Source: a virus (lineage: Duplodnaviria; Caudoviricetes). Taken from it: a DNA stretch of 60,014 bases. Under the pieces are notes generated by a model. The model had not been told where the DNA came from. It was given only the letters and a program-made list of their open reading frames with translations, and did no database searches. The stretch covers positions 1 to 60,014 of IMG/VR virus record IMGVR_UViG_3300008261_000019. One strand, 5' to 3'. Below, piece by piece: positions 42,049 through 56,109 of this stretch; within the stretch, counting starts at the first letter, position 1; every line of letters begins with the position of its first letter. A program made the translations under genes and the position numbers.

Positions 42049-42072
42049 AATCATATCCCATGGGATATGATT
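42049..42072 (-). terminator. Palindromic terminator after terL
   Basis: AATCATATCCCA/TGGGATATGATT perfect palindrome with A/T runs on both sides. Confidence 0.65.
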
Positions 42073-42835
42073 AAAAAGTTCTTCTACTTGGTTTTGCTCC
42101 TCTACTTGGACCTCTACTAGGTTTATAGCTTGTTGATTTACTATTCATTCTAGAGCCAAGCGATATAATTCCAGAAGTAGTAGTCTTATTGTTTTCAAAT
42201 GGCTTATCTTCACTTGAACCTATTCTTTTTGCACTACTGTCTGTTAGGTTTTTAAATGCATCTATTTTTGCAATCAGGGATGCATGGCGGACCTTAAACG
42301 TATCATTATATTTCATGTTAAATACATGAATTGCTATCATGATACAATCATGTATGTGTTCATTTTTACTTGAGTATACTGGCCTTCCATTCATACCGAG
42401 TCTTTCAACTCGATACTCTTCAAATTGCTTAATCGTTTTTCTATCGGAAGGATTAAATGCAAATTGATTTCTCTCAAATAAAAGAACTGTATTATTCACC
42501 ATAAATGGTTTGATGTCTTTTTTATCTCTAATCTTTGTAATTGGGTCTCTAATTGTTACTTTCTCCGAAAAGTTAATTCGTATTACTTTATGCTGAAGTC
42601 CTGATTGAGGATTTTTTTGTCCGTATAGTTTTAATTGCTCAATCTGATACTCTCCATGACCAGCATCAACTGCAATATAATCAAAATTATATATATCATT
42701 TAGTTCAATAATTTTTTTAATTGCATTATCATATGTGAACTCATTCCGAGGAATTTCTGCTCGAACGAATGGCGCAAACACACCAAACTCTTCTATATAC
42801 TGAACGCCGACCATATTTGTATCGTTCTCATATTT
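42071..42835 (-). CDS. terL: Terminase large subunit, exon 2 (RNase H-like nuclease domain)
   Basis: Extends in frame upstream of the ORF-track ATG as KYENDTNMVGVQ; YIAVDAGHG and EHIHDC acidic residues. Confidence 0.85.
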   Translation of the reverse strand, partial: KYENDTNMVGVQYIEEFGVFAPFVRAEIPRNEFTYDNAIKKIIELNDIYNFDYIAVDAGHGEYQIEQLKLYGQKNPQSGLQHKVIRINFSEKVTIRDPITKIRDKKDIKPFMVNNTVLLFERNQFAFNPSDRKTIKQFEEYRVERLGMNGRPVYSSKNEHIHDCIMIAIHVFNMKYNDTFKVRHASLIAKIDAFKNLTDSSAKRIGSSEDKPFENNKTTTSGIISLGSRMNSKSTSYKPSRGPSRGAKPSRRTF

Positions 42836-43972
42836 CAGTTATGTTACGAAGAGAATCGCTACTTCTCTCCTTCTATAGCTTTCACTATAGCTCAGACTAT
42901 ATCTTGCGCCATAAATTATTTATGGCGACTGAGCGCTTCGAGTCGCTTGACTCTACTCCTATCGGATAGTCGTTGAACCTTCCCCTCATCAGGGCTTGGC
43001 TGCGCAATGGGTTTAAAAACCGATTATCCAATCCTAATTATTTTATGAGCATTCACGTTTAGGCTTATCTCATCCTTGCGTTGTAGCTAATTAGGCTCTA
43101 AGGACTTTCCCGCAATTCACTCAGTAGGGACATATATTTATTATATTTTCGCTTCAATCTCATATTTTCGTTAGAATCTTTATAAAGCCAATTTAATATA
43201 TTAATAACGCTTTGTATTTTACTAGTTTGCAGAGATTTTATAGAAGAGTTTTTCATTTGATAAAGAGTTGTTAATTCTGGTAAATACTTTTTTATTTCGA
43301 GTAACATATCTTCTCCACCAGCGATTTTAAATGTCCAACAATTTCTACTAACTGTTAAACATCCATCTCCATCAAAATATCCTCTAATAAAATGATGTAC
43401 TAGACTTTTATCAATTACCGGCATTTTGCACACAATAGATTTTCTTTCAATAACTCCATGATTTATAAGGTCTTTGCACATTTGTGTAGAATTAACTTTT
43501 AATAAACAAGCAGAATGGTTTTTAATATTTTTAATTTGAATTTTATAATTTGATTCAATTTCTTTTTGAAAATTATTTAAATGGTCTATGTCATCACTAT
43601 TTAAATTTATTTGCAGTCTATATGAAAATTTATCAGAACCTTTATATACACATCCATCTGCCATTATAAATCCTAGCCAATATGCTTTTTCTGGAGTATC
43701 AATACTATAAAAGTATTTTTCGTTGAAAGAAAACTTTCTTGCTCCTTGCGAGCCGACATTTTGATTAATATCATAGTACTTCATTAAATTATAAACAGTC
43801 TTATAATTGACTGAATATAATTCCGCAATTTTATAAGCGCTTTTATATTTATTATAAAGATTTTCTAACTCTTGTTTTGAAGCAAATACCTTCATTTTGC
43901 CAGCCATATTATCACCTTCATATTAAGATAATAATATTATATAAGGTATTGTTTGAAAATACAATGATGTTT
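42836..43972 (-). ncRNA. Group I self-splicing intron in terL
   Basis: Exon 1 ends in U (TGGGAT) and the intron ends in G (ATAACTG). Core elements on the minus strand: GAATTGCGGGAAA (P), CGCAGCCAAG (Q), GTTCAACGACTA (R), AAGATATAGTC (S). IGS GTCCC pairs with exon GGGAT. Splicing restores GIDWD-KYEND. Confidence 0.9.
43098..43907 (-). CDS. Intron-encoded LAGLIDADG homing endonuclease
   Basis: Two motifs, YWLGFIMADG and FIRGYFDGDG, plus an N-terminal HTH-like segment. Confidence 0.92.
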   Translation of the reverse strand: MAGKMKVFASKQELENLYNKYKSAYKIAELYSVNYKTVYNLMKYYDINQNVGSQGARKFSFNEKYFYSIDTPEKAYWLGFIMADGCVYKGSDKFSYRLQINLNSDDIDHLNNFQKEIESNYKIQIKNIKNHSACLLKVNSTQMCKDLINHGVIERKSIVCKMPVIDKSLVHHFIRGYFDGDGCLTVSRNCWTFKIAGGEDMLLEIKKYLPELTTLYQMKNSSIKSLQTSKIQSVINILNWLYKDSNENMRLKRKYNKYMSLLSELRESP

Positions 43973-44932
43973 ATCCCAGTCAATTCCGAGTATTCGAGGA
44001 CCTCTTTTTTCGAATTTATAATCTACATAATCTATGCCCAGTGATTGTCCTAAGTTGACTGCTTTATCTAGATGGCTTTTTAAATATACGCCCCTAGATT
44101 CTTCGCCAAACTCAGCCATAACTTCTTGTATATATCTTACTTCGGTTAATTCATCTTTTAATTCATCTAAATAAGTTCTACCCGTATCTTTATTTACCTT
44201 TAATAATTCTGGGTTTACAGTAGATGGTGCATAGCATTCTCTCCAACCATTCGTAGGAGCGCCTGTACACCACTTATAGAAGGAGCTACGACGACCTGAG
44301 GGTGTTGATGCGGCAATAATTTTAATACGCTCAGGAGCCTCATTACGAATGTTTAAGATGTTAGTAATATCACTATCGTTTAAGTAATCGCACTCATCTA
44401 ATATGATAAGGTCAGCTCTTTGTCCGCGAGTTGATGCTGCGCCCGTAGAGTTCTTTGTACTTGCTGTTTGTCCTTTAATACTTGTGCCATTATAAAGACT
44501 TAATTGGTGATGAACATCTCGCTCAATTGAAGAACGTATTTCTGGAGACATATCGATTAATTGCTGTATCCGTTCAAATATTAAATCGACTTGAGCTTCA
44601 TAAGGCGCAATAATTAAAATATCATATTGGTTGTTTGGGCCTTTGTTTGGTTGCATCATTGCATGCCACAAGATAGAGATACACATGACTTCCGTTTTCC
44701 CGAGACGTCTGCCTAGGCGCATAACTGTTTGTTTTGAATTAACAATAGTATGCAACATCGAGAATTGATAATCTCTTGCATGCCAATCTAAAAAAGCAGC
44801 AGCCCAGTTTACTGGATTAATATAAATTTCTATCATCATAATCTCTTCTTGACTAAAACCAAGCACTTCAAGTTCATCTTTCGATTTCCCTTGAAGTGCT
44901 TGAGCAATTTCAAACCATTGATTTGATGCCAT
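43973..44932 (-). CDS. terL: Terminase large subunit, exon 1 (ATPase domain)
   Basis: RDYQ, Walker A GRRLGKT, Walker B LIILDE, motif III ASTP; ends GIDWD. Confidence 0.92.
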
Positions 44933-49235: not shown

Positions 49236-49529
49236 TTATGTATTTGGCTTGCTAATTTTTAAATCATCTCTGCATTCTTCGCAATATCTTTTCTTTCTCT
49301 CTTTTCTTTTAATCAAAACAACCTTTTTGCAAAATACGCATTGATACTCTTTGTCATTTCGTTCCTGTAAATTTGCAGTAGGAATATTGTATTTAATCCG
49401 TGTACGGTTAATTGTTGCACGGGAGCATCCTATAACATCCGCAATTTCTTTATCAGTCAAGCCCTCTTGTTGGCTTAGTCTTGTTATTTCTTTTACTAAA
49501 AATGGTAGCATTAGATTACACTTCCCCAA
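49236..49529 (-). CDS. HTH plus zinc-ribbon protein (putative transcription regulator)
   Basis: GLTDKEIADVIGCSRATINR HTH; CVFC...CEEC. Confidence 0.7.
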   Translation of the reverse strand: MGKCNLMLPFLVKEITRLSQQEGLTDKEIADVIGCSRATINRTRIKYNIPTANLQERNDKEYQCVFCKKVVLIKRKERKKRYCEECRDDLKISKPNT

Positions 49530-50595
49530 AAAATGAAATTTATCTATTTTTTCATAGATATTTGTAACATCTTTTTACTCTAATAAATTATTCTACTCCA
49601 CCCTTCTCCACTTTTTCAAATCACCCCTCTCAAAGACTCCGTCTGTATAAGGTTCCATTTTTTACTATTTCTATAATTATACTATTTAGTCATATATTGT
49701 TAATAGGCGCAACCCACAGTTATTTGCCTCAATCATGATAAAGCTGTCTGAAGAGCCGTGTTCAACTCACATAAAAAAATACCATCAAAGACCGAGGTTA
49801 TGTTCCTCCGAAGATTCTGTAACTATGTCTTCGGTCTGTATTTTTCTAGCCTCGTTTTGTATAAGGTTTTAGATTTGTAGATGACAATGTCAATTCTTGC
49901 CATTTCAGCTATAAACCTTAGTACTTGAGTATCTTTTTTTATCTTTTAATAGCTAGTAGTTATATATAGTTAGGTAATATATAAGTTATAAATAATAGAA
50001 CACCTCGCCTAGGCCAATGTGTGACATGACTAATGTTTAATTTGTGAACATTTTGTGTCTAATACTTATACACTATGTATAACCATTGTATAATAATATG
50101 GTATTAAAATGGGAATTTTACATATCATATTTTTGATATGAAGTACATACATTGGATTAATTTTATTGTAGCACAGTTTTCTTGTAATTTATTCAAATTG
50201 TTTTGAAAACAAATAGAAATATTTTTGTAATTAGTTAGCACAAGTTAGCGCTTACATTTTATTCATGAATTTAATGAGTCATATGTGCGAAGCACATATT
50301 TGAATTCTAATCATTTATTGCATCTTATTTTTAAATTCCTTATAGGAATAAAAAATTATACATATATATTTTTGGGACCCTGCCTTTTTATTTAAAGGGG
50401 CGGGGTCTTTTTTATTTATTTTTATTTTCTTATAAATAAATTCAAATATTTCATATATATTTTTTGCGGTGCGAAAATCGTTAAGGGGTTGGAAAAAGTA
50501 TATATATTTTTCTGCGGTGCCAGGCCTATATATTAATGTGAACCACAGCGTTCGATGCCCCACTGGTATTAGACGTTGTGTGCCTCCGCGTCTCA

Positions 50596-50653
50596 AGGGT
50601 AAGAAGCATATACGATACTACTTCGGTAGTTACTCGACAAGTATATGTACCTT
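50596..50653 (+). ncRNA. Unidentified structured RNA motif, copy 1
   Basis: GGT-AAGAA-GCATATAC-GAT-ACTAC-TTCG-GTAGT-TACTCGACAA-GTATATGT-ACC; covaries with the copy at 51842. Confidence 0.6.
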
Positions 50654-50706
50654 AATCACTGTCGTTACCGTCACATGCCAATAAGCTAGATACACTAGAT
50701 GAGGCA

Positions 50707-51321
50707 ATGAAAGGAGATGTCTCTATGTTGGAGATGTTGTTGTTTGGGTTGTTGTCTGCTTTAGTTGTTATTCTATTGATGCCTGCTGATGTGCAAGCAT
50801 CTATTCGTCGTGCGCTTGTGTCTGCTGCTCGTCGCTTTGCTGATGTCATTGAGTCGGGTCATGCTCGTGCTGCTAGTCGTCCTGTTACTGAATCCTCTAA
50901 AGAAGGTATTACCAAGAAGAATCCTTGGTCTGAGCCAAAGGTAGTATCGGTTGAAAAAGTTGTTGACGTTGATGCCCTTGAGCGTCGCTTTGCTATGATA
51001 CAAGACCAGCTTGATGCATCGCAAAACCGCTTTCAGTCGTTCTTGTACAATTACCATGGCGATATGGCTCGTGTTGGGGATAAGCTTCAAGAGGTTGATG
51101 GATTGGATAGACAATTAGATTCTACACACTCCAGTATCGAATATCTTCGCTCATTAGACCGTAAGCTTGAGCTTAGAGTAATTGCAATTGAGGAATTACT
51201 ACAATCACCTCGCGAACTTAAGGAAGCTCTTGAAAAGGTTGAAGACCAAGCAACCCAGCTTCGTAAAGAAATTGAACGTCAGAATGCTATCACTGAACAG
51301 TTGAAAAAGTTTGAGTACTAA
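50707..51321 (+). CDS. Membrane-anchored coiled-coil protein
   Basis: N-terminal TM and heptad C-terminus; likely start is the ATG at ~50725 behind AAAGGAG. Confidence 0.7.
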   Translation: MKGDVSMLEMLLFGLLSALVVILLMPADVQASIRRALVSAARRFADVIESGHARAASRPVTESSKEGITKKNPWSEPKVVSVEKVVDVDALERRFAMIQDQLDASQNRFQSFLYNYHGDMARVGDKLQEVDGLDRQLDSTHSSIEYLRSLDRKLELRVIAIEELLQSPRELKEALEKVEDQATQLRKEIERQNAITEQLKKFEY

Positions 51322-51329
51322 AATCGTTC

Positions 51330-51360
51330 AGGGTCAGGGGCTTCGGTCTCTGGCCCTTTT
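51330..51360 (+). terminator. Intrinsic terminator
   Basis: AGGGTCAGGGGC-TTCG-GTCTCTGGCCCT-TTT. Confidence 0.75.
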
Positions 51361-51392
51361 ATATATAAATCACACTACAAGGAGTTGTTGTT

Positions 51393-51830
51393 ATGTTTGT
51401 ATTCTTTGGTTTTGTCTTTTCATTCTGCTTGATTGTTGTTCTATTGCAAAAGGCTGGTAAGTACCGTGTATTACGGGTAATCGGTGATGTTCTTCGTGAT
51501 ATCGCTGATAAGGTTGAGGGCGTTACTATTGAGACTCGTGAGATTGATGAGTCCCAAGTTCCATCGAATATTCTTAAGGCTGCTAAGTTAGCGCAGCCAG
51601 TCAGCTTAGTAAGTGGTCCTAAAGTATGTGCAGTGTTTGAGTGTGTACTTGATGATGGGTCTGTTACTACGTTAGAGGTTCATGAGTTAGAATCGGTTAT
51701 TTGGATAACTGAGGTTTATCTCAATGGATTTGGCTTCAAGAAGGTTGCTGAGCGTCCTAGTATCAGCATGCATCGCAAGGTATTCGTTGATGGTAAATGT
51801 ACTGTCTGCGAGTACTTTCTCCCTCTTTAA
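51393..51830 (+). CDS. Hypothetical membrane-anchored protein
   Basis: SD AAGGAG; N-terminal TM. Confidence 0.7.
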   Translation: MFVFFGFVFSFCLIVVLLQKAGKYRVLRVIGDVLRDIADKVEGVTIETREIDESQVPSNILKAAKLAQPVSLVSGPKVCAVFECVLDDGSVTTLEVHELESVIWITEVYLNGFGFKKVAERPSISMHRKVFVDGKCTVCEYFLPL

Positions 51831-51841
51831 TCGTTGTTCAT

Positions 51842-51899
51842 GGTGAGAAGCTTACCTAATACTCATCTCCACATGAGTCACTTGGCAAGGGTAAGTACC
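51842..51899 (+). ncRNA. Unidentified structured RNA motif, copy 2
   Basis: GGT-GAGAA-GCTTACCT-AAT-ACTCAT-CTCCAC-ATGAGT-CACTTGGCAA-GGGTAAGT-ACC. Confidence 0.6.
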
Positions 51900-51934
51900 T
51901 AATTCATATTCATTTAATTAAAGGAGATGTTCTT

Positions 51935-52255
51935 ATGTTTAATGTTAAGTTGAATCGCAGAGGTAAGATTGTTCGACTGTTGTTTGTTGTCGCATTGTTC
52001 ACAATGATTATTACTGGTATTGCGGATAGCTTCTTCAAGGATGCATTTAAGGTAGTGGATTACGAAGAGGTAGTTGTCTCTGATGGAGATACCATCTGGA
52101 TGTTGTGCAAGAAGTTTAATGGACGAGTAATTGCATCATCGACCGGGGATGTTGGTGAATGTGTTCATCATGTAAGTAAGATGAATCCTGAGCAATCTGA
52201 TACGTTACGCTCTGGTGATGTTATTAAGATGCCTGTATTGGCTGTTAATGAGTAG
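51935..52255 (+). CDS. TM plus LysM protein, YneA-like cell division inhibitor
   Basis: N-terminal TM; VVVSDGDTIWMLC...MNP...TLRSGDVIKMP LysM; 106 aa, the same architecture as Bacillus YneA. Confidence 0.7.
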   Translation: MFNVKLNRRGKIVRLLFVVALFTMIITGIADSFFKDAFKVVDYEEVVVSDGDTIWMLCKKFNGRVIASSTGDVGECVHHVSKMNPEQSDTLRSGDVIKMPVLAVNE

Positions 52256-52280
52256 TCGTTCAATGACTTGATTTGAATAT

Positions 52281-52316
52281 GGAGAGGGCCTCATAGATGG
52301 GGTCTTCTCCTTTTTA
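52281..52316 (+). terminator. Intrinsic terminator
   Basis: GGAGAGGGCCTCA-taga-TGGGGTCTTCTCC-TTTTT. Confidence 0.7.
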
Positions 52317-52318
52317 TT

Positions 52319-52377
52319 TTCTTCATAATGCAGCCATTGACGGTCACAAGCCCGTATGAGAAATGCAGAGTGGGAAG
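52319..52377 (+). ncRNA. Twister ribozyme (type P1)
   Basis: cttca-TAA-TGCA-GC-cattga-CGG-TC-ACAAGC-CCG-tatgagaaa-TGCA-GAG-tggg matches twister architecture; predicted cleavage between U52326 and A52327. Confidence 0.85.
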
Positions 52378-52623
52378 TCATATCACGGAAAGGAGTTGAT
52401 GAGGTGCTAAACAACTTGCAGTGCTCCACCATTGCAAGCCTAGCAGTACGGGCGCTACAACGTCGTCAGTCAGAATCGTTTACCAGGAATACCATGCCAC
52501 TTTTACTGAATTTCTTGGGCATGGAGATGTTCTTAAATTCTTGGTTCCATGGGGACGCCTGTGAATTGCAGTGGACGTGCAATCTAACAAGACGTTACTA
52601 CTACACGAAAGGAGGTGATTTTT

Positions 52624-53157
52624 ATGTTTGATTGGCTAGCAGAATACGACAAAGGTATCCCCATTGAAGAAAATGAAACATCTAACATCGATGAGTTCCG
52701 TATCGCCTACGAATACCAAGACCTCAAAGAAACACTTGGTATCGCTCATCACAACTTCAATCAATCAGAAGAGGCATTTTTATTAGCACTCAAATCTGAT
52801 GACCTCAGTACCTTTGCCTATCACTACAGACGGTTTTTAGGTTTTAACCGCCAAGCTAGCATCTTTGTCGATGCTTCTGTAGCCATGATGAGACGTAATG
52901 CTGAGTTGGGTTATCTTGGGATTGATGAAGACAAAGCATTTAGACGCTATTGGAGATATGCTGGATTTAAGTTTCATAACCAGCAAATCACTGATACGTT
53001 TAAGAACTTGCAAGTTACGCCAGTATCTAAACCAGAAGAGAGGAGGGACCTGAACCTAAATGTTCCTGATTTCAAAGAATTCCCGATTGAAATTAGTGCA
53101 GCGCACCGTCTCGACCCATATGGGTTCAATACTGACGGATTTGGGCATTTCTATTGA
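52624..53157 (+). CDS. Hypothetical protein
   Basis: Perfect SD GAAAGGAGGTGAT followed by ATG at 52624; the ORF track starts at 52615. Confidence 0.7.
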   Translation: MFDWLAEYDKGIPIEENETSNIDEFRIAYEYQDLKETLGIAHHNFNQSEEAFLLALKSDDLSTFAYHYRRFLGFNRQASIFVDASVAMMRRNAELGYLGIDEDKAFRRYWRYAGFKFHNQQITDTFKNLQVTPVSKPEERRDLNLNVPDFKEFPIEISAAHRLDPYGFNTDGFGHFY

Positions 53158-53428
53158 TGATTTTATTGTTAATAGAATTGAAATTGTAGAAAGTCGAATT
53201 CATGGGTATACAGGTAATCCATCCGAGAGAAGTAGCATTCATATTTATTTATCTCTACCTGTATTGTTCTCAAATTCTTTAATGGCTTTCAAGCCCGTTG
53301 CTCGTCGCTTTATTTGCTTCGAATTGGTCAAAGAACTATACCACTACTGGTCTAGTATCAATCGCATTGAATATAACCCAGCTTGGGCTGAATCTTATGC
53401 CGAACAGTGGGTCAAGGAAAATCTGTAA
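53060..53428 (+). CDS. Hypothetical protein
   Basis: Overlaps the previous ORF; true start is probably the ATG near 53120. Confidence 0.5.
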   Translation: MFLISKNSRLKLVQRTVSTHMGSILTDLGISIDDFIVNRIEIVESRIHGYTGNPSERSSIHIYLSLPVLFSNSLMAFKPVARRFICFELVKELYHYWSSINRIEYNPAWAESYAEQWVKENL

Positions 53429-53432
53429 TACC

Positions 53433-53460
53433 CGTCCTGAGCATGACGTTAAAAGGCTTC
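53433..53460 (+). ncRNA. Compact H-type pseudoknot motif, copy 1
   Basis: CGTC-CTGAGCAT-GACG-TTAAAAG-GCTT; loop GAGC pairs with GCTT. Confidence 0.5.
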
Positions 53461-53494
53461 CTCTTCATGAGGACTAAAAAAGGGAGGCAAAACA

Positions 53495-53971
53495 ATGCCA
53501 AAATCACCACATGCAAACTGGTCTGTATGGTCATTACTTCACCTTGAAGACAATGATGTCGTATATGGACCAAAAGTCTCAATCGATAAAATTGAGAAAA
53601 TCGTCAACACCCTGCAACCACCCATCAAGGTGATTGTAAGAGTTGATAATCGCGAGACCATCATCAAAGAAATGGCGTTCAAAGCCAAGGAGTCAGGTTG
53701 CGAAATCCATCTCGAAGACAATCGTAATCCCCGACATCCCATTCCCCACATGAACGACGACTGGTCAATGGTCCGTTATCGTGGTGGAGTAATCATTAAC
53801 GGTAAGCCCGAGACCGTAACACAGGCAATTAATGATGAGATTTATGGCTATAAACAAGACCTCATTGTTAGGTACGATTTAAAGCGTTACATCATTGATG
53901 AGGCATTGTATTCCGCCGAGATTCAGCGCAAGTACGATGTCTTATTACTTGAGCCAGTAGCCCGTCACTAA
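53495..53971 (+). CDS. Hypothetical protein
   Basis: SD AGGGAGG; 158 aa. Confidence 0.75.
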   Translation: MPKSPHANWSVWSLLHLEDNDVVYGPKVSIDKIEKIVNTLQPPIKVIVRVDNRETIIKEMAFKAKESGCEIHLEDNRNPRHPIPHMNDDWSMVRYRGGVIINGKPETVTQAINDEIYGYKQDLIVRYDLKRYIIDEALYSAEIQRKYDVLLLEPVARH

Positions 53972-53978
53972 ATCCCCC

Positions 53979-54015
53979 AGCACCCTGACAGATGGTGCTC
54001 TATAAATAGTCTGTC
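53979..54015 (+). ncRNA. Compact H-type pseudoknot motif, copy 2
   Basis: AGCACC-CTGACAGAT-GGTGCT-CTATAAATAG-TCTGTC; loop GACAGA pairs with TCTGTC. Confidence 0.55.
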
Positions 54016-54040
54016 CACTTTACTAAAAGGAGATAGTGAT

Positions 54041-54553
54041 ATGCAAAAAATCAAAGTTAACTTGCCTGTACAGAGGTCGTACTCAAACATTGTTGGCTTC
54101 CAGGTCAAGGGAGTTCCTTACTCGAATCAGCAATGGATTCGTCTCGAGTCTGATAACCCGGAGGGGCTTATTCCGGAAATGAACGTATCGCTTAATGTAG
54201 GCCCTGGCATGTCGCTTTACATTGGTCGTAATGACCAGAATGTATACCGCTTTGGTCTTTGGTACGAAGATGAAACCCTTCGCCCAGGGCACGGGGGCTT
54301 TTGGTCATCAAACTGCGAGTTTGTTCGGGAACAGACAGGAATTGACCTAGTTCCAATCAGTATTGCAAAACCAGGCGACACGGGAATTGCGGCTTACATG
54401 CGAGCAGACATTCTTGCGCTGATATCAATTAAATTTGGCTACAGACTAGTATGGGGTCGCTTTTATTATGATGACCCTCACTGGCATGCAGTTCCGATTG
54501 GTCAACCAAATCCTGAAGAACTTCCACCTCAGGAAAAGTGGTGGAAAGATTAA
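54041..54553 (+). CDS. Hypothetical protein
   Basis: SD AAGGAG; 170 aa. Confidence 0.75.
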   Translation: MQKIKVNLPVQRSYSNIVGFQVKGVPYSNQQWIRLESDNPEGLIPEMNVSLNVGPGMSLYIGRNDQNVYRFGLWYEDETLRPGHGGFWSSNCEFVREQTGIDLVPISIAKPGDTGIAAYMRADILALISIKFGYRLVWGRFYYDDPHWHAVPIGQPNPEELPPQEKWWKD

Positions 54554-54613
54554 TCCCGCCTGACGAGTCCTAAAGGACGAAACCTGTAGCCTTCGGGCTA
54601 TGGGTCGTGGGAT
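54553..54613 (+). ncRNA. Hammerhead ribozyme (type I)
   Basis: Stem I ATCCCGC/GTGGGAT; core CTGACGA; stem II GTCC-taaa-GGAC; GAAA; stem III ACCTGTAGCC-ttcg-GGCTATGGGT; GTC triplet with cleavage after C54606. Confidence 0.93.
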
Positions 54614-54925
54614 ATGATTTACCCACAATTTATACAGAAAGGAAGTGATGGCCATCTGTATCGTAGTGCTCCACCACTACCGCTACAGAAAATCCCCTGC
54701 AACACGACCAATCATCAAGACGCTACACACACCCTCTACGTACTCCACGTACACCCTGTCGTCCCGTCGTCAAAGTCAGTTGTCTGTCGTTAACTTTCGC
54801 CCATTTAGTGAGTTCATGGGCGAAGAGAGTCACATAAACTCTTGTTTCCATGGCTAGCCGTGTGAGGGTTTATAAACGCTCAAGCTAATCAGCCGTAAGG
54901 CAAAACTAAAAGGAGGTATCCCACG

Positions 54926-55582
54926 ATGGATACAAACAAAGACAAAATGATGGCATTCTTGTCATCAATGACCGAAGAGCAAGCTTCAACTTTCATGGCA
55001 ATGCTTTCGCAACAAGAAGCTCCTGTCACAACTAAACCAATTGAAGTAACATGCGCACCATCAGTTGCACCGTTCTTTGCAGTAATTATTAATGAACCGT
55101 GGTTTCATGCAACAATCGATATGTATCCGGTAGCAGGCGGTTGGTCGGAATGGAAGTTTGCTGACCTTGCAAAAGCAAAAATGGCTGAATTTAAGATTGC
55201 TGAAGATTCCGATACTGCTGGCGATGCATGGGTTTTTCTTAATCGTATGCTTGGTCTTACTGGTAGCAAGGAGGACCGTTGTTTTATCGCTGAAGCTGTA
55301 TGCGAAATGTTGGGTATGGAGTACAGACATTCTTACCGCGTAGCAGACAAAGTATCTGATGTCATTGCCTGGGCAGTTGATAAAACTGGTATTAGCATTC
55401 AATGGGTTGGCAATAAAGTCGTTCTTGTTGGTGAATGGACGCAAGACCGCGCACCTGATGCTGGCGGCTTAGTAGGCAAGCCTCTTCGCTGGGCAACTGA
55501 TGTAGTCAGCAATGGCAAGCAAAATATCAGCAACTTGAAGCAAGCGTATAATCAAGTGAAAGACAACAAAGCCACTGAGTAA
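54926..55582 (+). CDS. Hypothetical protein
   Basis: SD AAGGAGGT; 218 aa. Confidence 0.75.
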   Translation: MDTNKDKMMAFLSSMTEEQASTFMAMLSQQEAPVTTKPIEVTCAPSVAPFFAVIINEPWFHATIDMYPVAGGWSEWKFADLAKAKMAEFKIAEDSDTAGDAWVFLNRMLGLTGSKEDRCFIAEAVCEMLGMEYRHSYRVADKVSDVIAWAVDKTGISIQWVGNKVVLVGEWTQDRAPDAGGLVGKPLRWATDVVSNGKQNISNLKQAYNQVKDNKATE

Positions 55583-56109
55583 TCGGTGGTTTTCCTGTCT
55601 ATCAGGAGGAATGAGGGTTTATCCCTTTTCCTTGAGTACATCTGATTAGGTGTATTCAAGGAAGACGGATATGCCAGTTGCTATCTGGTCTTCAAAAATT
55701 TAATCCGAAAGGAGGTGATTTATTATTTCACCAGCACTATCCCGCACCAAGGGGAGTGGAGAGTCAAGCGCAAGTCGAGATGTAGCCTACCAGTATTCGT
55801 AGTTTTACTTTCATCTAACAAACAAAGGCACCCGACGTTTTTTGCGCTACTTATCCCTGCGGAGGTGAGCTAGTTGCACGTGGAAGTCGTTCAGTCAAGC
55901 AAGTCCTGTCGTCCGTCGGTATCGTTCAGTCGCTCAAGTCAAGTTGTCAGTCGGTGTAATCAAGCAGATGCTTTTCTTATCTATGGGGAGGTCTGGGGTC
56001 TAACATAGATGGCTCCATGGGATTGTCTTCTCATACGCAGTAAACGCTCAAGCTAATTGCCTGTAGCTCAAATTCAAAACCACCAAAAATAAAGGGAGAT
56101 GTATTTATC

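Follow-up and report, generated by a model that had tools for sequence, protein, structure and literature searches.

The locus considered here raises the question of whether a short motif that occurs twice between the early genes of a tailed phage, in the neighbourhood of known self-cleaving ribozymes, is itself an RNA at which the transcript is cut, and by what means. The window is the whole stretch of DNA analysed, a complete 60,014-bp contig (IMGVR_UViG_3300008261_000019; Caudoviricetes) that stands as its own genome, and this phage is contained in freshwater and lake metagenomes of several studies, with no RNA run among those listed for the region. The − strand, up to 49529, carries its structural and packaging genes, and from about 50700 onwards there follows a series of small open reading frames (ORFs) on the + strand. 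The motif, here called motif X, was delimited by reading the sequence, by half-patterns and by a pairing check, as follows.

50598-50651, + strand: motif X, copy 1, 54 nt
51842-51899, + strand: motif X, copy 2, 58 nt

The analyses presented here demonstrate that motif X is real, that it belongs to the RNA level and that it is absent from Rfam. Judging by analogy with its neighbours, we regard the chances as evenly balanced that it is a cis-acting + strand RNA module of the early operon, serving as an mRNA-processing (punctuation) element. A first-pass annotation had described a shared frame at these two sites; the frame and the limits of copy 2 (51842-51899) proved exact, and copy 1, placed at 50596-50653, had been drawn 2 nt too wide on each side.

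Copy 1 reads GGT-AAGAA-GCATATAC-GAT-ACTAC-TTCG-GTAGT-TACTCGACAA-GTATATGT-ACC. The 5′ half-pattern GGTRAGAA-N8-RATACT, with at most one mismatch, has two matches in the window versus 0.09 expected (0 of 100 shuffles reach two), and the 3′ half-pattern AGTYACTYGRCAA-N8-ACC has two versus 0.00 expected. When the window was searched, with filters off, using a covariance model built from both copies, only the two inputs were recovered, the best other of the 12 matches listed scoring 11.8 bits (E 1.5). The 5′ flanks of the copies are unrelated (5/30 positions identical); on the 3′ side, similarity extends for about 10 nt beyond ACC. A coding role was rejected: no common reading frame runs through both copies, since the inner hairpin, P3, is of unequal length in the two (by 4 nt) and the frame left open in copy 1 is interrupted by a stop codon in copy 2.

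Both copies can be folded into one nested structure, in which P1 (GGU/ACC) encloses a 5-nt bulge (RAGAA), an 8-bp P2, an internal loop (RAU/YACUYGRCAA) and the P3 hairpin.

50606-50613 with 50641-50648, + strand: P2 of copy 1, 8 bp
50614-16, 50617-50630 and 50631-50640, + strand: inside P2 of copy 1, the J2/3 segment GAU, the P3 hairpin and the 10-nt strand UACUCGACAA, respectively
51850-51857 with 51889-51896, + strand: P2 of copy 2, 8 bp
51861-51878 and 51879-51888, + strand: inside P2 of copy 2, after the J2/3 segment AAU, the P3 hairpin and the strand CACUUGGCAA, respectively

Standard pairs occupy 28 of the 28 cells of this structure over both copies, and 15–50% of cells were paired in a control in which the partner columns were slid. 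P2 carries seven substitutions, every one of which preserves pairing (three pairs differ at both bases and a fourth, C-G to U.G, at one base only), so that the earlier claim of stems that differ but still pair is confirmed. P3 consists in copy 1 of the conserved ACU/AGU closing pairs, two further pairs and a UUCG loop, and in copy 2 of ACU/AGU, three further pairs and a CUCCAC loop; the inner parts are unalignable (AC-UUCG-GU versus CAU-CUCCAC-AUG), yet each copy forms a perfect hairpin. P1 and P2 (11 pairs) are predicted independently by RNAalifold. The covariation is real, but with two sequences its statistical power is low, the shuffle control having a floor of 1 in 8 (64/500 observed). Since the G.U pairs (G50606.U50648, G51850.U51896 and U51857.G51889) fit only the + strand, the RNA is assigned to that strand, which is also the strand of the genes.

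The further claim, that the unpaired bases are conserved while the stems vary, is weaker than it was put: changes are found at 5/18 unpaired and 7/16 stem (P2) positions (Fisher p = 0.48), and the unpaired bases are therefore not demonstrably better kept. All five differences at unpaired positions are transitions. Among the strains compared (four runs, all of them DNA contigs), no difference is listed inside either copy, in a sample too small to show constraint; 7/7 differences of run X8 fall outside copy 2, the one difference of run X2 in 262 nt around copy 1 lies upstream, at 50583, and around copy 2 in the same run 3/19 differences are not shown.

Other folds were considered as well. In copy 2, CAUCUCC can pair with GGAGAUG of the downstream ribosome-binding site; sequestration of the Shine-Dalgarno (SD) sequence was rejected as a common mechanism, as it is found in copy 2 only and not in copy 1. 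Kink-turn, tetraloop-receptor and tRNA-like readings, made by eye, were dropped because the bases that they require are absent from one or both copies.

The proposal of a processing role comes from the genomic setting, in which motif X is followed by two ribozymes of known classes.

52322-52376, + strand: twister ribozyme of type P1, without P3 (Rfam, 46 bits, E 5e-7 on the whole window; sub-threshold, gathering score 67.2)
54554-54612, + strand: type I hammerhead ribozyme (Rfam, 30.3 bits versus a gathering score of 34, near-threshold; CUGACGA, GAAAC and GUC all in the alignment)

The start of gene 1 is ATG 50725, fixed by the identical N-termini of three homologues (P0005, P0006 and P0007), and 61 nt lie between the end of copy 1 and the GGAG of this gene. 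The stop codon of ORF 51393-51830 precedes copy 2 by 11 nt, and 23 nt separate the end of copy 2 from the GGAG of ORF 51935-52255; the twister lies 12 nt past a terminator-like hairpin and about 15 nt ahead of the next SD sequence, and the hammerhead begins directly after the stop codon of ORF 54041-54553. Motif X, twister and hammerhead are thus all at gene boundaries of one co-directional operon, 15–61 nt or less from a stop codon or SD sequence. The two ribozyme cassettes share with motif X both the strand and the kind of slot, which extends from a stop codon or terminator to the next SD sequence, and the first-pass annotation was right in ascribing to the motif the intergenic placement of true ribozymes.

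We suggest that a site-specific cut at or beside motif X would provide the downstream cistron with a defined 5′ end shortly ahead of its ribosome-binding site; the twister and hammerhead occupy comparable slots further along the operon. Both the cutting and its mode are what we infer, and self-cleavage is the mechanism that we prefer, although motif X being self-cleaving by any mechanism is a tentative proposal of distinctly less than even likelihood. Alternatively, within the same processing role, a host or phage endoribonuclease might recognize the conserved bulge and loop and make the cut, which we consider unlikely.

Motif X was said to be unrecognized, and Rfam bore this out. Neither copy was matched at gathering thresholds in the whole window or at E<=10 in 49500-53000, and 75–78-nt slices of the copies gave no credible match at E<=10 (for copy 2 only mir-7578 and sR30, E about 7–8), nor did the HDV-family models match at E<=10 on the 75- and 78-nt slices (HDV, hepatitis delta virus). 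A blastn search of 49500-55500 against GenBank phages gave no match, and literature keyword searches, no search by sequence being possible there, gave no prior description resembling motif X.

Comparison with individual classes of ribozymes and processing sites is in line with this. In a hammerhead, CUGANGA and GAAA form the core of a three-way junction, and cleavage takes place at a UH site; motif X has no three-way junction, no such core and no hammerhead match in Rfam, and the true hammerhead at 54554 is detected. The hairpin ribozyme is made up of two domains with loops, which dock over a junction or hinge, whereas P2 of motif X is a continuous 8-bp duplex without a hinge, the AGAA bulge has no opposing loop strand, and Rfam gives no match. 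An RNase III site is about two turns of near-continuous double-stranded RNA, and motif X offers 3 + 8 + 5–6 bp, broken by the 5-nt bulge and the 3/10 loop. RNase III processing signals are known from early polycistronic phage mRNAs, as in the R sites of T7 and in Bacillus phage SP82, and these direct one cut and, like motif X, consist of several similar hairpins that carry internal loops and are placed between early genes; motif X differs in that its helices sum to 16–17 bp and are interrupted, and in that its stems vary freely and its loops are kept. The RAGATH motifs, reportedly described by Weinberg et al. in 2015, are likewise conserved structured RNAs near twister and hammerhead ribozymes in phage-type gene arrays; they form many-member families, whereas motif X is represented by two copies from a single phage lineage and has no match among the RAGATH families of Rfam. 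With the twister and hammerhead of its own operon motif X has no core nucleotides or architecture in common, and it has no multi-helix junction.

Twister ribozymes comprise P1, P2 and P4 with two pseudoknots formed via conserved L4, L1 and L2 bases, and have a U-A cleavage step (PMC6154101); the copies have no Rfam match to the twister (P1, P3, P5), and the true twister 470 nt downstream is detected. In pistol, the P1 hairpin loop forms a 6-bp pseudoknot with the P2–P3 junction, and the G-U cleavage step links P3 and P2 on the 3′ side (PMC6154101), whereas motif X has no 5′ hairpin, has its long junction strand 3′ and not 5′, and is without an Rfam match to pistol. Hatchet has the stems P1–P4, and its conserved bases lie in the P1–P2 segment and the P2–P3 bulges (PMC6154101); motif X has three helices only and no hatchet match in Rfam. 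For twister-sister, the available part of PMC5660989 gives an L1 loop with strands of 5 nt (G5 to G9) and 6 nt (G59 to U64), and in the available part of PMC11620745 a stem–internal loop–stem rod suffices for self-cleavage in the twister-sister-like lantern ribozymes, where the longer strand of the loop has a C-A step; full twister-sister forms are described in these portions of the two papers as having an additional SL4 contact. Motif X resembles them in that its long loop strand ends, on the 3′ side, in C-A-A-G, and CAAG is the only resemblance, to one strand; its loop strands are 3 and 10 nt long, the short strand has another sequence, there is no junction or SL4 partner, and Rfam gives no match to this group.

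The earlier statement that the motif fits no known consensus stood as far as Rfam is concerned, and needs qualifying for HDV, since both copies can be fitted to a P4-less HDV-like topology, though with a P1 shorter than that of the family. The alternative pairings on which this model depends are as follows.

50598-50601, + strand: 5′ segment of copy 1, GGUA, pairing with ACC 50649-51 (P1, 3 bp) or with UACU 50631-34 (pseudoknot, 4 bp, first pair G.U)
51842-45, + strand: 5′ segment of copy 2, GGUG, pairing with ACC 51897-99 or with CACU 51879-82
50635-37, + strand: P1.1-like segment of copy 1, CGA, complementary to UCG 50623-25 (P3 loop region) and followed by CAA 50638-40
51883-85, + strand: P1.1-like segment of copy 2, UGG, complementary to CCA 51869-71 and followed by CAA 51886-88

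With these pairings, an HDV-like nested double pseudoknot that lacks P4 is one possible drawing of both copies. P1 would be formed by GGUR with YACU (first pair G.U), J1/2 by AGAA, P2 by its 8 bp and P3 by the conserved ACU/AGU; YGR would pair with the P3 loop in a P1.1-like manner, and the C of J4/2 (CAA), which is C50638 in copy 1 and C51886 in copy 2, would act as general acid and be the candidate analogue of HDV C75, with the predicted cut lying 5′ of G50598 and G51842. In this drawing the proposed P1, P2, P3 and P1.1 pairs are all standard in both copies, the strand order (P1, J1/2, P2, P3, P1.1, cytosine-led J4/2) is that of HDV-like ribozymes, and GGUR/YACU begins with G.U and abuts P3 directly. 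The pseudoknot positions also vary in a compensatory manner: the R of RAGAA and the Y after AGU, which form the fourth pair of GGUR/YACU, change together between the copies (A-U to G-C in P1), and CGA/UCG becomes UGG/CCA in P1.1. The 5′ edge of conservation falls at the predicted +1 G, and the model would explain why conservation ends so sharply there. The fixed-position chance of P1, a 3-bp P1.1 and CRR occurring together is about 3e-5 per copy, a post hoc estimate; the P1.1 partner was chosen after the fact, and the chance of a 3-bp complement is 0.09 and 0.15 in the respective copies.

In the available part of PMC6326823, the HDV-like descriptor has a P1 of 7 bp (1-7 with 29-35), a G1-Y pair, a 2-bp P1.1 (L3 with the bases after P1) and C-R-R-A in J4/2. 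C-A-A of motif X fits the first three positions (C-R-R) of this junction, and its first pair also fits G1-Y. Minimal HDV-like ribozymes without P4 are, according to the accessible text of PMC10879173, almost confined to Caudoviricetes phages, and P1.1 composition varies, according to that of PMC13635239. As portrayed in those parts of PMC10879173 and PMC6326823 that were at hand, the minimal ribozymes (drz-Mtgn type, and theta of Caudoviricetes phages) share with motif X, as drawn here, the strand order, with P1b placed immediately behind P3, G.U as the first pair at the 5′ edge, a conserved P3 of 3 bp, the lack of P4, a size of about 55 nt, and a phage intergenic site in sense with the genes; descriptor details published in the same two papers, known here in part, may bear on the test of P1 length. 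In motif X, J4/2 is C-A-A followed by the invariant G that opens the P2 3′ strand, and it is accordingly one base shorter than C-R-R-A, or else its last base is G and not A.

A considerable body of evidence weighs against this model, and some of it against self-cleavage and processing in general. The HDV-like family is not known to have a 3-nt J2/3 such as that of motif X. In copy 1 the P1.1 partner falls within a C(UUCG)G tetraloop, a structure of high stability that is as a rule inert. P1 has 4–5 bp versus 7 in the descriptor, with four contiguous pairs, and the fifth (A-U) would break the first P3 pair. The loop U.G reverse wobble has no clear counterpart, and the L3 bases U19, C23 and G24 were looked for and not found; in the CUCCAC loop of copy 2, UCCAC resembles U-C-C-N-C with an A at the G position, and copy 1 has ACUUCGGU. 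The same CUCCAC loop recurs on different hairpins of the operon (CTCCAC at 51867, 52424, 54669 and 54743, + strand). GGU pairs equally well with the 3′ ACC, and the Y of ACUYG may instead pair with the R of RAU, a reading that excludes P1.1. The model leaves the conserved AGAA and the 3′ ACCU..AAU tail unexplained. A relaxed HDV-like descriptor gives 25 distinct sites in 120 kb (both strands of the window), among them 50597, 50598 and 51842, and for this reason a fitting topology is weak evidence. Predicted folding energies are ordinary (z = -1.58 and +0.09). No structured homologue was found in the collections scanned, and two sequences carry all the support. Finally, according to the part of PMC6765202 available, further structured RNAs detected beside ribozymes failed to cleave when assayed. 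The same text names the shared neighbourhood of twister and hammerhead as the lead to twister-sister, pistol and hatchet, which speaks for a processing role.

Compared with the minimal HDV-like ribozymes as the accessible portions of the literature present them, motif X therefore differs in the shorter P1, in J2/3 and in a J4/2 of CAA (or CAAG) in place of C-R-R-A, and further in the tetraloop position of the P1.1 partner in copy 1, in AGAA and the 3′ tail, in having no Rfam HDV match and in having no adjoining tRNA (a search for tRNA and tmRNA found none, and no tRNA adjoins motif X). We argue against filing it as an HDV-like ribozyme, because P1 length and L3 features were tested and do not agree, though it may work like one; the P4-less nested double pseudoknot as the actual mechanism of self-cleavage seems improbable to us, somewhat more so than the endoribonuclease.

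The homologue search proposed in the first-pass annotation yielded 0 structured homologues. Pattern scans gave 7 loci, then 10 (3 of them new) and then 0 in viral contigs, 2 in metagenome contigs and 9 in genome contigs, and at none of these 21 distinct loci in the three collections is the stem complementary at P2; the patterns have 19–22 fixed bases taken from two related copies, and distant relatives would be missed. Protein-based searches for related loci with the 145-aa, 204-aa and polymerase-fragment ORFs, and with alignment A2, found none, and the 145-aa and 106-aa flanking proteins have no relatives beyond their own clusters, which makes 2/3 flanking proteins orphans. The terminase N-terminal ORF retrieved 4 related loci at 43–51% identity, in which no covariance-model match is better than E 2 (8 listed) and Rfam gives no match at E<=0.01; neither motif X nor a ribozyme was found in these distant relatives. 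Gene 1 has two relatives, P0006 and P0007 (49% and 43% identity), on contigs of 1,786 and 58,010 nt; its first 22 residues (50725-50790) are identical in both, despite 36–44% identity over the whole alignment, and the 5′ untranslated region (UTR) and start of gene 1 may be one conserved module. A tblastn search of GenBank phages with P0006 found nothing. Separately, contigs of runs X4 and X7 match 50630-50666 (the 3′ half of copy 1 plus 15 nt) over these 37 nt only, at >=80%, in otherwise foreign sequence, which may be due to chance or to a fragment common to another phage.

What else could such an RNA do without being cut? Bulge and loop bases conserved around variable stems, and the confinement of the motif to one lineage, as expected of a co-evolving phage-encoded partner, would suit an RNA to which a regulatory protein or a small ligand binds, as in a translational operator or a riboswitch-like aptamer, so as to adjust expression of the small membrane-protein genes downstream; moreover, the genes downstream of both copies have a hydrophobic N-terminal segment and closely alike translation-initiation regions. 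However, the motif ends 61 and 23 nt before the SD sequences, with no overlap and with unequal spacing, no terminator or SD-sequestering alternative is common to both copies, no RNA-binding protein was identified among the neighbours, and gene 2 has a similar N-terminus yet no motif X; we consider this explanation unlikely, about on a par with cleavage by a protein enzyme. Antitermination in cis, as by the put RNAs of phage HK022, would let the polymerase read through the terminator-like hairpins inside the operon. The first + strand hairpin of this kind 3′ of copy 1 is at 51330-51357 and that 3′ of copy 2 at 52281-52310, and the twister, 12 nt behind the latter, must be made by read-through. 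These are two cases only, though; the later hairpins (57084 and about 57800) have no preceding motif, the two-hairpin architecture is lacking, and the hairpins may be plain 3′ protective ends, so that we find such a role highly unlikely.

A compact fold that is itself uncut might instead stabilize the 5′ end, blocking 5′-to-3′ exonucleolytic decay after an upstream cut, and the location in a 5′ UTR just before the ribosome-binding site, together with a possible pseudoknotted fold, is compatible with this; but a plain hairpin would suffice, conserved loops would not be needed and the predicted stability is ordinary, and we rate stabilization marginally below antitermination. Equally far down we place the possibility that there is no RNA function, motif X being a duplicated remnant, a small mobile cassette or a DNA signal such as the hairpin promoter of a phage RNA polymerase. 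The existence of two copies only, the lack of homologues found, and loop bases not significantly better conserved than stem bases are what one would expect in that case. On the other hand, all seven P2 substitutions keep pairing and both P3 hairpins are perfect though unalignable. In DNA the G.U pairs would become G.T mismatches, which are weaker, and the opposite strand would have A.C mismatches in their place; the motif is also sharply bounded, with nothing in common between the 5′ flanks.

Returning to a processing element that cuts itself, we suggest, as a possible though doubtful reading, that motif X is an undescribed self-cleaving ribozyme, either an HDV-like one drastically reduced to about 54 nt, with a 4-bp P1 and without P4, in breach of the accepted descriptor, or a representative of an altogether new class. 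It might then be, with similarly guarded confidence, a ribozyme of one freshwater phage lineage that is interchangeable with twister and hammerhead for punctuating the early operon.

Several other features of the genome were observed. At 52321/52322, a variant-strain contig (run X2) matches 51562-52321 and continues with 219 unlike letters that include CTGATGA (hammerhead-like), and a second contig of the same run starts at 52322; the 5′ edge of the twister suggests a recombination or cassette boundary between strains, with the slots perhaps acting as interchangeable cassette boundaries. The intergenic slots 53429-53494 and 53972-54040 (+ strand) contain hairpins with loops complementary to downstream bases (possible pseudoknots) and have no Rfam match at E<=5. 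Just 5′ of copy 1, at 50465 and 50513 (+ strand), the window has its only two occurrences of TGCGGTGC, each following a TATATATTTTT-type run; they are 48 nt apart, and this repeat may be a promoter or operator. TCGTTCA (51324, 52256, 55887 and 55922, + strand) directly adjoins the stop codon of gene 1 and that of gene 3 on their 3′ side, and a tandem GUC-rich repeat at 55887-55955 contains it twice. The large terminase appears to be split (42071-44932, − strand) into an N-terminal ATPase ORF at 43937-44932 (Terminase_6N), a LAGLIDADG-type ORF at 43098-43907 and an ORF at 42071-42814, which suggests a homing endonuclease borne by an intron or intein.

New natural self-cleaving RNA architectures are rare, and most have been found by looking beside known ribozymes; motif X, with two copies, is a lead and not a discovery. 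If it cleaves, either the HDV-like fold tolerates a far shorter P1 than search descriptors allow, and such phage ribozymes are being missed, or a new class is represented. If it does not cleave, it would be a compact signal directed at a protein or at RNA polymerase that occupies the slots of ribozymes, and this would bear on the role that ribozymes have in phage operons.

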